Shown here: positions 3,249 through 9,204 of the stretch, piece after piece
How positions within the stretch are numbered: the stretch's first letter is position 1
How the letters are laid out: each line of letters starts with the position of its first letter
Virus record (IMG/VR): IMGVR_UViG_3300044547_000928
Coordinates: 3,862 to 67,861 of that record
Source: a virus
Strand: one strand, 5' to 3'
DNA: 64,000 bases
Translations under genes and position numbers: made by a program
Notes under the pieces: model-generated
The model's input: the letters and a program-made list of their open reading frames with translations, nothing else
The model's database searches: none
What the model was told of the DNA's origin: nothing

Positions 3249-3324
3249 TGGCTCCTTAATCTCCTTTGTGAGCCACCTGCGCGGCCCAGTCTAGTTTACC
3301 CCCGTTACTAGGCTGGGCCTTTTT
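3249..3324 (+). ncRNA. Two-hairpin 3' element or sRNA with anti-SD loop and C-rich loop, ending in an intrinsic terminator
   Basis: TGGCTC[CTTAATCTCCTTTGT]GAGCCA, then GGCCCAGTCTAG[TTTACCCCCGTTA]CTAGGCTGGGCC plus T-tract. Confidence 0.55.
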
Positions 3325-3345
3325 CTATTTGCGCGCCAGCCAGAG

Positions 3346-3400
3346 CCCAAGGGAAACGGAGTGCGAAAATAAACCCGAACAATCTGGAACACCATATTCT
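3346..3400. repeat. Three-part dispersed element, copy 1
   Basis: CCCAAGGGAAACGG-N7-AAATAAA-N17-ACCATATTCT. Confidence 0.9.
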
Positions 3401-3581
3401 CAGGGAGCAGGGGTAAGAAAAGATAAATCACTTCCCAGCGGGGGCAGCGCGGGTCTATTTAGCACTAACTCGTGATATATCAGCAAGATAATTTTATTTT
3501 GAGGTTGGTGTTTTGGCAATGTCCCGATAGAATTGAATTATCAAGTTATCAAGAAGAAATAAAAAAAATCTTCTGTACAGG

Positions 3582-3610
3582 TTGCAAAGCCTGCGATAAA
3601 GTGATACAAT
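3582..3610 (+). promoter_or_regulatory. sigma70-type promoter with A-tract UP element
   Basis: TTGCAA-17-TACAAT, TG extension. Confidence 0.85.
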
Positions 3611-3656
3611 AGTATCAGTAAGTAATCAAACAACAAACTAACAAAGGAGCAATAAA

Positions 3657-4697
3657 ATGGGAATGGAAACTACCGAGTGGTACAACACGCAGATTTTGGT
3701 TGGTATGACCGACCAGCGTGGAAATGCGTGGCACTACAAGAAAGAAGCACAAGGCGACGAGCCGAACCATTATGCAGGTGCAATTCCTGTTGAAGATGTA
3801 CAGCGCAGGCTGTTCTCGTGGTCGGCACAAGAAGCCCCAGTCTTCATTCAAGTACCAGCAACAATGGAAGATGCGACAAGCGTTGACGAAAACGGTAATC
3901 CCGTCAAGTTCATCAAGGCTGGAAATCGCAAAGCAATCCTACGAGATGATACAAACGACCTGTTTGAAATCTTCAAAGATGGCTATGCAATCCACCAGTA
4001 CAACGACTGGCTCGTAAAGAACCTCGCAAATCTCGTAGATGATGATTTGGCAATCGGTTCCGCTGGGCTACTCAAAAATGGTGGAGTGGCTTGGGTGTCG
4101 CTTGAAATGCCCGAAAGCATTGAAGTAATTGACGGGTTCAAGGTTCGCCCACACTTGCTTGCAACGACCAGTCATATCGGCACGCTGGCAACGACCTACA
4201 AGAAAGTATCTACTTTCGTGGTCTGCGACAACACGCACTCAATGGCTATGGGCGAAGATGGCGAGCAGTTCAAGGCTCGTCACTCAAAGCACAGCGCACT
4301 CAAAATCCAATCGGCTCGTGATGCGCTAGGCATTATCCACAAAATGACTGATGATGTAATTGCAGAGATTACAAAATTGTCAGAGTGGAAAGTGACTGAT
4401 GAACAGTGGAACACACTGCTCAACCAGTTAGTGCCAGTGCCTACCGACCTAGAGCAAAAGACGGCGATTACTCGTGCAGAGAATAAGCGTTGGGCGTTGA
4501 AAGACCTCTACGCTAACGATATGCGAGTAGCCCCGTGGTCGGGAAGTGCGCTCGGCGTGTTGCAGGCTTACAACACCTACAACCACCACAAGGCTGGAAC
4601 CGACAAGAACCGAGTAGAGCGAAATATGCTCAACGCACTTAGCGGTTCAACTGGTACGGCAGATGCGAAAGTGTTGCAGGCTCTAGCGAGCCTGTAG
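3657..4697 (+). CDS. DUF932 / TIGR03299-like phage-plasmid protein
   Basis: NAWH, SAGLLKNG, LLATTSH.G, VVCDNT and RH motifs typical of the family. Confidence 0.85.
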   Translation: MGMETTEWYNTQILVGMTDQRGNAWHYKKEAQGDEPNHYAGAIPVEDVQRRLFSWSAQEAPVFIQVPATMEDATSVDENGNPVKFIKAGNRKAILRDDTNDLFEIFKDGYAIHQYNDWLVKNLANLVDDDLAIGSAGLLKNGGVAWVSLEMPESIEVIDGFKVRPHLLATTSHIGTLATTYKKVSTFVVCDNTHSMAMGEDGEQFKARHSKHSALKIQSARDALGIIHKMTDDVIAEITKLSEWKVTDEQWNTLLNQLVPVPTDLEQKTAITRAENKRWALKDLYANDMRVAPWSGSALGVLQAYNTYNHHKAGTDKNRVERNMLNALSGSTGTADAKVLQALASL

Positions 4698-4707
4698 CAC
4701 TAGCGGG

Positions 4708-4737
4708 TCGGGCCCGATGGGAAACTGTCGGGCCCGA
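4708..4737 (+). terminator. GAAA-loop hairpin after the DUF932 gene
   Basis: TCGGGCCCGATGG-GAAA-CTGTCGGGCCCGA. Confidence 0.65.
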
Positions 4738-4807
4738 TAGCCCGTCCTAAAATTTAGAAAAAAGTGGCGGGGGTAGGGGCCCGCGAAATAAAATCTTTTA
4801 TTAGAGG

Positions 4808-4836
4808 TTGCTAAACCCCACATAACCTGCTATAAT
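4808..4836 (+). promoter_or_regulatory. sigma70-type promoter
   Basis: TTGCTA-17-TATAAT, TG extension. Confidence 0.85.
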
Positions 4837-4870
4837 ATATACATACCCAATGACAACAAAGGAGAAACTA

Positions 4871-5134
4871 ATGAGAAAACCAAGAATGTACGGCTCACCC
4901 GCAATTCGTGTGGTCTTGACAATGGCGCGCGAGGAGTGGTTCTACGATGTAGTAGAGGCAGTTGAGTTCGTCACCAAGAACTGGAAAGAGGGCACAGAAC
5001 TGAGCGCAAGGGTTCGCAGTGGAAACTACTGGGAACCAGTGTTCACCATCACCAAAGACGGCGAAGCATACGCCTCACCAGTCTATGCAGAGTTGCTCGC
5101 ATCAGCGCCAGTAAAAATGGAGATAGCACTATGA
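4871..5134 (+). CDS. Hypothetical protein
   Basis: ACAAAGGAGA RBS favours ATG 4871. Confidence 0.75.
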   Translation: MRKPRMYGSPAIRVVLTMAREEWFYDVVEAVEFVTKNWKEGTELSARVRSGNYWEPVFTITKDGEAYASPVYAELLASAPVKMEIAL

Positions 5135-5334
5135 GCCACTACGCAGACACACTTATCGGAAAAACAATCGCGAGGGTGCGGAGCCTGGAAGACGAGGAGT
5201 ACGAACAACTCGGTTGGTATAAAAACAGCAACCCAACTGCCGTACTTGAATTCACTGACGACACATACGCTATTGTTATGGCAGACCCCGAAGGTAATGG
5301 CACGGGATTTCTAGACATAGGAGAATACGCATGA
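5131..5334 (+). CDS. Conserved small phage protein (DPEGNG.G motif)
   Basis: GGAG RBS, ATGA overlap. Confidence 0.8.
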   Translation: MSHYADTLIGKTIARVRSLEDEEYEQLGWYKNSNPTAVLEFTDDTYAIVMADPEGNGTGFLDIGEYA

Positions 5335-5486
5335 GCGAATCTTTAGTGAATGCGACTCAACTTGTAGATAAAGCAATACAAAAAATAGCGGGGCAATCAC
5401 TTGTCTCATCTGCAGAAATGACCGACTTACTATTAGACATAAGACTTTGCCTAATGAGTTGCGAAACATCAGTAGAACTGGTATAA
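5331..5486 (+). CDS. Small protein (51 aa), not in the ORF track
   Basis: AGGAGA RBS; MSESLVNATQLVDKAIQKIAGQSLVSSAEMTDLLLDIRL...; stop codon lies in the next -10 box. Confidence 0.65.
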   Translation: MSESLVNATQLVDKAIQKIAGQSLVSSAEMTDLLLDIRLCLMSCETSVELV

Positions 5487-7854: not shown

Positions 7855-7860
7855 ATGAAG

Positions 7861-7889
7861 TTGCTTTATATGCTACAACAGTGTATAAT
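7861..7889 (+). promoter_or_regulatory. sigma70-type promoter
   Basis: TTGCTT-17-TATAAT. Confidence 0.8.
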
Positions 7890-7936
7890 GTAATAGCAAG
7901 GAAAAACCAAACCAACACAACAAAGGAGAAAACATA

Positions 7937-8359
7937 ATGAGTAAACAAATGGCAGTAAAAGTACAGACCACAAAGGTCATCAAGGCTCTTGAGGAAGCCC
8001 TCAAAATCCGCGATAAGAAGTTCGCTGACAGCAAAAAGGCACAAGTGGACTTTGACAAGGAAGTGGCAAAGTACAAAGAGGAACTTTTCAGGTTGGCAAA
8101 GTCGCCAAAGGCAAAAGTAACCGAGGTAACAACCTACGAGCGTTGGCATCAAAAGAATGAAGCAGAGCAAGAAATCTCTGTAACTATCAAAGTCCCTCGC
8201 TCGCTTGTTCCAAAAGAGCCTGAGAACCAGTCCAACTACCACGAGCGTATTTACAAGGACGAAGTTGAGGAAATCAACAACGCCCTTCGCTTGTTGCGTA
8301 TGACAGACCAAGAGTATGTGAACGCCTCAACAATGAAGTCCGTTTCACAGTACCTCTAA
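7937..8359 (+). CDS. Hypothetical coiled-coil protein
   Basis: ACAAAGGAGA RBS; clean ORF. Confidence 0.85.
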   Translation: MSKQMAVKVQTTKVIKALEEALKIRDKKFADSKKAQVDFDKEVAKYKEELFRLAKSPKAKVTEVTTYERWHQKNEAEQEISVTIKVPRSLVPKEPENQSNYHERIYKDEVEEINNALRLLRMTDQEYVNASTMKSVSQYL

Positions 8360-8403
8360 ACAAAATCTTGACGGGGTGGGTACGAGAAGTGACCCGCCCC
8401 GTC

Positions 8404-8432
8404 TTGACAAGACCGCAATAAAATGATATAAT
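8404..8432 (+). promoter_or_regulatory. Perfect consensus promoter with no downstream ORF
   Basis: TTGACA-17-TATAAT with TG extension, right after hairpin 8370-8403. Confidence 0.9.
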
Positions 8433-8438
8433 TGTAAC

Positions 8439-8530
8439 ACTACTCGCTTGAGCCCCTTACCCCCTTTCGGGGCTCGCGGTAGAGGTGGGGGGCTGCTTGC
8501 TTTCCTTTCGCAAGCGCCCCCACCGACCAT
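8439..8530 (+). ncRNA. Candidate two-hairpin sRNA with C-rich and anti-SD loops
   Basis: GAGCCCC[TTACCCCCTTTC]GGGGCTC and GGTGGGGG..GCTTGC[TTTCCTTTC]GCAAGC.CCCCCACC. Confidence 0.62.
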
Positions 8531-8639
8531 TCAACAAGAGGGAGAAACGAGGGCAAGATTATTGCGATACTACTACTGGCGTACTTTATAAAAATGAGGA
8601 AGTCAATATATAAAAATGCAAGAAAACATAGATATCGAG

Positions 8640-8668
8640 TTGCTAATAATAAGATGGAATGGTATAAT
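8640..8668 (+). promoter_or_regulatory. sigma70-type promoter
   Basis: TTGCTA-17-TATAAT. Confidence 0.85.
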
Positions 8669-8700
8669 TAGTACACAACCTAATACAAAGGAGCAATAAA

Positions 8701-8787
8701 ATGGATATTACAATTCACTGCGTAGAATGCGACAATCAGATTCCTGCAGAGGAATACGCTTACGGGCACGACTGCGAGGCGTCATGA
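8701..8787 (+). CDS. 28-aa Zn-finger-like micro-protein
   Basis: MDITIHCVECDNQIPAEEYAYGHDCEAS; ACAAAGGAG RBS; ATGA overlap. Confidence 0.65.
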   Translation: MDITIHCVECDNQIPAEEYAYGHDCEAS

Positions 8788-9161
8788 AACTAAGCGGAGA
8801 GATTACGACGGGATGCGCATGCGTGGACGAAGACGGCAATGAGTTCTACAACGAACACTGCGACGGCATTTGCTACGAATATGCACTCGAAGACTTTGCA
8901 CAAGTTATCGAGCCGCTATTTAAAGATACCAATCACTTTCGAGTGAGCGGCATTCAATTGTGGAGTGGAACGGTCGGCGGAGTCGCCAGGTGTGACACTG
9001 CCAATGACCTCGTCCGTGCAATGTCGGTAAGTGGAGAATTCATTCTGCGATGGGAGTTTGACGACGAGACCAATAGTCTCGGAGCAAGACTTAGCCACCA
9101 CGACAACCCGATGGGCAGTTGGGTAACTGTGGAGCCAGTAGAAGAGCCAGAGTACGATTAG
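8784..9161 (+). CDS. Hypothetical protein (SHHD.P.G motif)
   Basis: ATGA coupling to the micro-ORF. Confidence 0.75.
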   Translation: MKLSGEITTGCACVDEDGNEFYNEHCDGICYEYALEDFAQVIEPLFKDTNHFRVSGIQLWSGTVGGVARCDTANDLVRAMSVSGEFILRWEFDDETNSLGARLSHHDNPMGSWVTVEPVEEPEYD

Positions 9162-9168
9162 ATTTGGT

Positions 9169-9204
9169 GCGGGCAGAGACTTATTTCCTTTCGTCTCTGC
9201 CCGC
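9169..9204 (+). terminator. Hairpin with anti-SD-like loop
   Basis: GCGGGCAGAGAC[TTATTTCCTTTC]GTCTCTGCCCGC. Confidence 0.7.

Follow-up and report, generated by a model that had tools for sequence, protein, structure and literature searches.

An uncultured phage, represented by 64,000 of the 67,861 bases of IMG/VR record IMGVR_UViG_3300044547_000928 (this whole 64,000-nt stretch is called the window below), carries a family of plus-strand hairpin modules that show a conserved single-stranded pyrimidine loop motif. The family comprises a compact RNA of ~90 nt with two hairpins, A and B (two-hairpin RNA, 2HP), which stands behind a consensus promoter and has strong covariation support, and two single hairpins, H1 and H4, which lie directly past stop codons. 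Our tentative interpretation, which we regard as quite possible though short of probable, is that they are phage-encoded base-pairing RNAs that occlude Shine-Dalgarno (SD) regions, and on that interpretation we infer the accumulation of the RNAs, their pairing in trans, their targets, and their effect. A reading made from the letters alone (the sequence-only reading) had proposed four hairpins with anti-SD loops, and three of them, at 3249-3275, 8484-8524, and 9169-9204, held up in the analysis. The features of these modules are as follows.

8404-8432, plus strand: sigma-70-type consensus promoter, TTGACA-17-TATAAT with TG ahead of the -10 hexamer, a 12/12 match
8439-8528, plus strand: 2HP, ~90 nt, with a start near 8439 inferred from the -10 hexamer
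8449-8476, plus strand: hairpin A, within a longer helix (8440-8482), with loop UUACCCCCUUUC, which has five C in a row
8484-8524, plus strand: hairpin B (H3b), with loop UUUCCUUUC, the loop given as 8501-8509 in the sequence-only reading
9169-9204, plus strand: H4, with a 12-bp stem and loop UUAUUUCCUUUC, 7 nt past the stop codon 9159-9161, no T-run after it
3249-3275, plus strand: H1, 8 nt past the stop codon 3238-3240, with an apical loop carrying UCUCCU(UU)
3283-3325, plus strand: intrinsic terminator directly 3' of H1 (hairpin 3283-3319), with a 13-bp stem including one G-U pair, a loop with ACCCCC, and a T-run

Covarying stems and conserved loops

We compared the window with relatives found in IMG/VR and metagenomes via a neighboring 140-aa protein (window 7937-8359). 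The element-bearing relatives are L002/L010, L003/L009/L019, L014, L015, L016, L017, L018, and L021, in which the neighboring protein is 47-99% identical. The region 8437-8535 of the window folds at -49.0 kcal/mol (z -5.35), with none of 200 shuffles as good, and the RNAalifold consensus on eight sequences contains 28 pairs. In the model-based alignment of eight 2HP sequences, 97.3% of the 220 stem cells are in standard pairs, and 11 of the 28 pairs show changes on both sides, a level reached by none of 500 shuffles, while sliding the partner by 1-3 columns lowers the pairing to 38-48%. Compensatory changes are found in 9 of the 15 pairs of hairpin B. Because 19 of the 220 stem cells are G-U on the plus strand, which makes them A-C mismatches on the other strand and caps minus-strand pairing at ~91% (arithmetic from the pair counts), 2HP is read from the plus strand, in agreement with the promoter. 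The lengths of 2HP differ by 13 and 10 nt between versions, ruling out a conserved reading frame. The consensus promoter that had been claimed at 8404 is confirmed with its 17-nt spacer as the sole perfect match among 18 promoter-like sites in 3100-9500, and its hexamers are kept in all eight further element-bearing loci shown, with TACAAT in L019. The earlier placement of the RNA on the plus rather than the minus strand is thus supported by the G-U cells of 2HP as well as by the plus-strand T-run of the 3283 terminator; the G-U pair and the T-tract that had been noted near 3320 are both present in this terminator (3283-3319).

The words kept in the loops of 2HP are CCCC(C)TTT in hairpin A and (T)CCTTTC in hairpin B, with ACCTTTC in one version, and CCTTT is present in every hairpin B loop printed. 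Loop conservation was judged from the printed loops and the pair counts. Comparing column identity between loops and stems was uninformative, because six of the eight sequences resemble each other closely and the two distant ones have their loops offset by one register. The loops of H1, hairpin B, and H4 carry CTCCTTT or TTCCTTTC, and the core of the motif is CCUUU(C), which occurs in the forms UCUCCUUU, UUCCUUUC, or CCCCCUUUC. The word counts of the sequence-only reading are correct: CTCCTTTGT occurs once on the plus strand (at 3261), ACAAAGGAG ten times on the plus strand, CGAAAGGAAA twice, and TTTCCTTTCG twice in the 64 kb (8501 and 9184), both times inside a hairpin loop. Anti-SD-like words are rare on the plus strand and gather in loops: the shorter word CCTTTC has six plus-strand copies in the window, three of them in loops (stems of at least 5 bp), and 13 minus-strand copies, none of them in a loop. 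Loops hold 3 of 4 plus-strand and 0 of 11 minus-strand copies in L010, and 2 of 5 and 0 of 11 in L009, where another plus-strand copy, a third, lies within a weak hairpin missed by the census filter. Relative to their genome counts, ACCCC, CCCCC, and CTTTC are the most used in loops among the 12 commonest loop 5-mers of the 127 plus-strand hairpins in the window. A global bias of loops toward pyrimidine was considered and rejected, as 58 strong hairpins from nine loci include 14 loops with at least 75% pyrimidine and 10 with at least 75% purine.

H4 folds at -23.8 kcal/mol (z -7.9; 0/200 shuffles as good), and in relatives it always stands 3' of the stop codon of the same 125-aa gene. Six stem-loop versions occupy this position (L010, L015/L018, L017, L009, and L021), built on three stem backbones without any sequence in common. 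Their stems read GCGGGCAGAGAC, GCGGGTAGGGA, GCGGGTAGAGAC (with an 11-nt or 12-nt loop), CTATCT flanked by GCG, and CCCC flanked by AACGT; the loop is (C)TTATT(T)CCTTTC throughout. Folding is weak in the two versions that diverge most (-7.9 and -10.1 kcal/mol; z -2.2 and -1.1). In L009, H4 is followed by a T-run terminator, and in L021 by a similar GC-rich stretch. A pseudoknot between the H4 loop and a GAGGAAA box 14 nt downstream was also considered and dropped, because the box is absent in L009.

The full H1 loop is the reverse complement of ACAAAGGAGA. In the window, H1 (3247-3277) has a weak 6-bp stem and folds at -8.9 kcal/mol (z -3.0; 2/200 shuffles as good), and relatives have a longer stem (8 bp in L010) and energies of -12.3 and -21.0 kcal/mol, the latter in L009. 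The core loop ATCTCCTTT is kept in four distinct contigs (homologues in L010/L002, L015, and L009/L003). The terminator directly 3' of H1 has a wholly different stem in L009 (CCAGCCGCGGAG / CTCCGCGGCTGG), and its loop is still ACCCCCGTT. H1 and H4 are not terminators themselves; they are placed between a stop codon and a terminator, or at the end of a cassette. A terminator scan restricted to loops of 3-8 nt listed none of H1, hairpin B, and H4, and hairpins with longer loops, including the 3283 terminator, are out of its range.

The remaining hairpin of the sequence-only reading did not hold up.

7056-7080, plus strand: fourth hairpin, with a CCTCCT loop; not supported as a family member

Its fold is no better than shuffles (7040-7090, -13.6 kcal/mol, z -0.33; 73/200 shuffles as good) and its stem is not kept, so this hairpin, with its loop at 7063, was rejected as a member. 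In L002 and L009, the stem seen in the window (TTGGCAC / GTG-A-CCAA) is disrupted, and another stem of 5 bp could form instead. The hairpin lies in a non-coding region of ~260 nt (6925-7186) with a promoter of its own (6883-6911), which is almost invariant in four phages, one of them with a neighboring protein 61% identical. A long closing helix is predicted for this region, the CUCCCUCCU stretch is partly paired in its consensus fold, and the variation is too low for structure testing. Being nearly invariant, the region is a separate conserved non-coding element, and the 7063 hairpin is not counted. The prediction of variable stems with fixed loops in relatives therefore applies to three of the four hairpins, with stem compensation and fixed loop cores, and fails for the one at 7063.

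The covariance model of 2HP, R1, gives exactly one strong match (60-112 bits) per element-bearing contig, and elsewhere in 282,566 bases its scores stay at or below 13.5 bits. The metagenome scan supplied L014-L018 and L021. No element was found downstream of the neighboring protein in contigs where that protein is 31-44% identical, and a pattern scan of viral contigs together with two protein scans returned only two already known contigs, plus L011, a 55% relative without the hairpins. The pattern scan of bacterial genome contigs gave seven matches in unrelated taxa, which we treat as chance because all score 11 bits or less with R1. Distant relatives (neighboring protein 31-42% identical) also have very stable hairpins, at L023 7887-7917 (also in L024), L026 1442-1476, and L008 392-425 and 3202-3238, with loops CACCCCTTTCA, ACCCCCC, TTCCCC, or TCTCCCAGC. 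These hairpins suggest that C/U-rich loops may be used more widely across this phage group. We also observed a second hairpin class, in which a fixed purine loop, ACGAGAAG(T/C)G, sits on unrelated stems (window 8370-8403; L010 14733-14766 and 19483-19510; L009 12343-12376), and one copy of it ends exactly at the -35 box of the 2HP promoter.

Predicted pairing with ribosome-binding sites and alternative roles

Each loop was scanned for duplexes over the whole plus strand of the window, with a gene table built by a rough open reading frame (ORF) and SD heuristic. The loops are unpaired in the folds, conserved, and predicted to be complementary to two classes of ribosome-binding site (RBS), and the best duplex sites in the window are predicted RBSs of early genes, as the sequence-only reading had proposed. 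The eight best duplexes of the H1 loop in the 64 kb (-14.4 kcal/mol) are all at ACAAAGGAGAA RBSs, and 13 of its top 15 sites adjoin a start codon. The five best sites of the hairpin B loop are all CGAAAGG-type RBSs, of genes between 9879 and 16789. The sites found with the hairpin A loop are mostly G-rich and non-coding, for example GGAGAGGGG at 6432, 7747, 11980, and 13064, and only 6 of its top 15 sites adjoin a start codon. The two copies of CGAAAGGAAA in the window are both placed ahead of genes.

10351-10360, plus strand: RBS CGAAAGGAAA of the gene starting at 10365, among the best predicted sites for the hairpin B and H4 loops
15093-15102, plus strand: second copy of CGAAAGGAAA, ahead of the ATG at 15107

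We compared the duplexes with those of a generic 16S tail motif. At the ACAAAGGAGAA sites, the H1 loop reaches -14.4 kcal/mol versus -9.2 kcal/mol for the generic motif, and the loops of hairpin B and H4 reach -10.1 to -13.7 kcal/mol at the two CGAAAGGAAA sites, where the generic motif has -9.8 kcal/mol. The class ACAAAGGAGAA(N5-7)ATG is found at genes between 395 and 10966, and the class (A)CGAAAGGNAA(N5-6)ATG at genes between 9543 and 16789; each of these two stereotyped RBS classes has a block of the early region largely to itself. We looked for co-variation between the flanks of the H1 loop and those of the RBSs and saw none; L009 pairs over only 7 bp.

On our interpretation, 2HP would be a dedicated gene whose ~90-nt RNA is made from the consensus promoter at 8404, and H1 and H4 are further copies of the motif in 3' untranslated regions (UTRs) directly past stop codons. 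The loops would most likely serve as seeds that pair with purine-rich SD regions, and this pairing would block 30S binding. The targets could be the two early RBS classes of the phage, host mRNAs, or both, and the mode of action would be as in the chaperone-independent small RNAs (sRNAs) of bacteria that have C/U-rich loops, of which the phage RNAs would be a phage-borne counterpart. With two RBS classes and a possibly leaderless whiB gene in the phage, such RNAs could provide a protein-free way of timing or ranking translation, or of shutting off the host.

Several points weigh against this interpretation. The test of targets is circular, as RBSs will be found with an anti-SD-like word of any kind, and the perfect 10-nt RBS match of H1 is down to 7 bp in L009, with the generic anti-SD core kept. 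Part of the H1 motif is weakly paired within its own loop. Fixed loops alone do not imply anti-SD pairing, because the purine-loop class in the same phages likewise combines a fixed loop with variable stems. H1, hairpin B, and H4 are not followed by a T-run in the window (CTGCGC, CGACCA, and CCTTGC follow) or in relatives, and a longer mRNA may simply have 2HP as its 5' part. The family is small, with one clade, nine loci, and ~6 distinct 2HP sequences, and three RNA-labelled runs (word shares 0.09-0.12) yielded only contigs of relatives (88-99% likeness), without starts, ends, or strand. Late genes also have SD-like leaders, which bears on the earlier proposal that leaderless and structural genes are spared: a whiB gene without an SD is indeed present, but the sparing of structural genes is speculation in view of these leaders, and the switch logic is unsupported.

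The region 3' of 2HP also bears on its role.

8558-8671, plus strand: optional small ORF of 37 codons, with a hydrophobic start followed by a basic tail and a possible ATT start

A purine-rich SD-like stretch (8538-8553) stands ahead of this ORF. Similar predicted peptides of 19-37 aa are found 3' of 2HP in L016 (1623-1688), L018 (1068-1130), L003 (6609-6668), and L021 (1313-1387), and the ORF is missing in L002, L014, L015, and L017, where the next promoter is directly 3' of 2HP. In L016, an upstream in-frame stop leaves ATT as the only start, and the ORFs of L016 and L018 differ by three synonymous and no non-synonymous changes over 20 shared codons. Judged by its sequence, the peptide may resemble small membrane toxins or phage membrane peptides.

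A structural role in cis only is the rather unlikely alternative that we take most seriously. H1 and H4 would then be stabilizers of 3' ends, processing sites, or pause sites of the mRNAs upstream, and 2HP would lead the transcript of the strong promoter as a protective or regulatory 5' element, which, where the small hydrophobic ORF is present, would control this ORF via alternative pairing with its purine-rich SD. The position of H1 and H4 at 7-8 nt past stop codons fits such a role, as do the real terminators downstream of H1 and, in L009 and L021, of H4, the lack of a terminator 3' of hairpin B, and the occurrence of a small ORF with a purine-rich leader 3' of 2HP in five of nine loci; in L016 and L018, moreover, CCCCUU of hairpin A is paired with the AAGGGG upstream of the ORF when the entire leader is folded to minimum energy. 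Stabilizers and pause sites, however, need no fixed loop, yet the loops are the conserved part, and 2HP with its loops is kept in L002, L014, L015, and L017, which have no ORF. Both hairpins are intact in the folds of the window, L003, and L021, and the SD region has a mean unpaired probability of 0.39-0.62 over the five leaders folded. Even with a purely structural role, the hairpins would be a clean case of phage untranslated regions in which the loop sequence of hairpins is under selection.

Variable stems with fixed loops are a classic mark of hairpins recognized by proteins, and this pattern, which the purine-loop class of these phages shares, would also fit loops that bind a phage or host RNA-binding factor or act as decoys for a host endoribonuclease recognizing pyrimidine words like the 16S anti-SD; we consider this unlikely. 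The UUCCUU loop core contains U^CCUU and UU^CCU, at which two actinobacterial MazF toxins cleave rRNA, the anti-SD region included, according to the account in PMC5408214. No candidate binding protein was identified, though, UCCUU is missing from the hairpin B loop of L002 (UACCUUUC) and from the hairpin A loops, and the resemblance of all three loop versions to an RBS complement makes pairing the simpler explanation. Both MazF and RelE toxins with U^CCUU / UU^CCU specificity have been described in actinobacteria, and a more specific idea, to which we attach a low probability, is that the loops, instead of silencing mRNAs, mimic the 16S 3' tail: the UUCCUU words that an abundant early phage RNA exposes on very stable hairpins would sequester or competitively inhibit host endoribonuclease toxins that disable ribosomes by cutting the anti-SD. 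Such a decoy would be an RNA-based anti-defence shielding the translation machinery during infection. We give very little credence to 2HP as a cis-acting antitermination RNA of the HK022 put type, after which the polymerase would read through the downstream hairpins. In put-type RNAs, two hairpins just 3' of a strong promoter modify RNA polymerase, and in the window the two hairpins begin at about +1 of the consensus promoter, with many terminator-like hairpins further downstream. However, nearly all genes downstream have promoters of their own, which leaves no obvious need for read-through; the loop motif also occurs in H1 and H4, which do not stand behind promoters; and no Rfam match supports this assignment.

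Relation to known RNA families

The hairpin RNAs belong to no described family, and the design itself is known from the bacterial cuckoo/CcsR, 6C, and RsaE RNAs. Rfam at gathering threshold gave no match in the whole window, and permissive scans gave sub-threshold matches only (CcsR1 at 25.3 bits, LhrC at 15.8 bits, and miRNA/snoRNA noise). CcsR1 (RF02791) aligns full-length to 8439-8528 on the plus strand, from the predicted transcript start, and scores 25.3 bits where the gathering score is 65.3 (E = 0.018 over 19.5 kb and 1.3e-4 over 141 nt), and no other sRNA family was listed in the 141-nt search at E up to 10. As described in PMC4615179, cuckoo RNAs have 2-4 hairpins in which changes to the stems are mainly compensatory and conservation is confined to the anti-SD-like loop motif. 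Like the cuckoo/CcsR RNAs (RSs0680, Alphaproteobacteria) in that description, 2HP has adjacent hairpins of similar size, covarying stems, and a conserved pyrimidine loop motif. Unlike them, its loops have ACCCCCUUUC / UUCCUUUC (hairpin A, (UU)ACCCCCUUUC; hairpin B, UUUCCUUUC or variants) and not the CCUCCUCCC that PMC4615179 gives for cuckoo RNAs, and it is phage-borne, in a probable actinobacterial system, with one copy per genome and further copies as single 3' UTR hairpins. The resemblance to CcsR1 is most likely convergent.

6C (B11), an sRNA of Actinobacteria, is described in PMC6486639 as binding G-rich RBSs with C-rich loops and no chaperone. Its host phylum is probably also that of the phage, and the hairpin A loop has five C in a row. 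The loops of hairpin B, H4, and H1 mix U and C (CCUUUC) and are not C-runs, and there is no sequence relationship; the 6C covariance model was not listed at gathering threshold, at E ≤5 over 19.5 kb, or at E ≤10 over 141 nt. The c4 RNA of phages P1 and P7 is likewise a phage-encoded small RNA whose loop sequences pair around an RBS and block translation, as summarized in PMC12197685, and the same is proposed here. However, c4 acts on one phage mRNA (ant) via specific boxes, whereas the phage RNAs described here have a generic anti-SD-like word in several hairpins, and the Rfam C4 model was listed in neither the threshold scan nor the permissive scans. RsaE/RoxS, LhrC, and RNAIII of Firmicutes direct UCCC or C-rich loop seeds against SD regions, as outlined in PMC4615179. 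They differ in being chromosomal and from another host phylum, and none gave a match near threshold; the weak LhrC match (15.8 bits versus a gathering score of 110) is at the loop of the 3283 terminator. The sequence-only reading had stated that no phage system of this form is described. This is too strong, as cuckoo/CcsR, 6C, and RNAIII-type RNAs and the phage c4 RNA are precedents for the design. To our knowledge, few phage sRNAs have been characterized. The literature searched contains no phage RNA of this design for actinobacteriophages, and a 2025 review of phage sRNAs does not mention mycobacteriophage, Actinobacteria, or C-rich loops (PMC12197685).

Genome context and further repeats

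The window encodes a terminase, a portal-MuF fusion, a prohead protease, and a major capsid protein. No DNA relatives were found among 50,697 phage records by megablast and blastn, and no tRNA or tmRNA was found in the window. The portal is ~40% identical to portals from Gordonia, Streptomyces, and Brevibacterium phages, and a WhiB-family gene (2161-2352) scores 73.6 bits in a search that, among 14 control genomes, was positive in Corynebacterium glutamicum only. Because of this gene, the host is probably an actinobacterium, with G+C near 46%. The 22 nt upstream of the whiB-family gene (2065-2439) have no SD-like sequence (16S duplex +0.8 kcal/mol), and a TATATT ~9 nt ahead of its ATG would fit a leaderless mRNA.

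The left 19 kb is a series of small plus-strand cassettes, most with a TTGC-N17-TATAAT promoter of their own, and the phage has ~25 single-gene early cassettes. Contigs of relatives from public runs join different cassettes exactly at shared RBS/promoter words, for example with a skip from 5519 to 8700, suggesting that cassettes are shuffled through recombination at conserved short words. Hairpins of 14-18 bp with an A-run ahead are found at 7683-7714, 9802-9833, 10573-10604, 10889-10924, 11170-11201, 11735-11770, 16046-16076, and 17092-17134. In these hairpins, the GNRA-type loop (GCAA/GCGA) and adjoining stem bases form the -35 box of the next promoter (TTGCAA/TTGCGA), and the 3' arm occupies the spacer before TATAAT; the stems vary between copies and phages.

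A composite repeat, GGAACGGAG..AAATAAACCC..CCATATTCTC..GGAGAGGGGC, is present in five copies (3345-3480, 6380-6520, 9215-9370, 13010-13200, and 17278-17440), each followed by a GTGATATATCA(C) palindrome. Two of the copies are directly 3' of H1 with its terminator and of H4, and the GGAGAGGGG box in the composite repeats is among the best predicted sites of the hairpin A loop. Islands dense in (C/G)AGGG(C) words, each just 3' of a gene, are located at 14400-14512, 15570-15662, 16390-16482, and 17180-17270, and the first two come after hairpins with ACCCCC loops (14320-14350 and 15454-15485).

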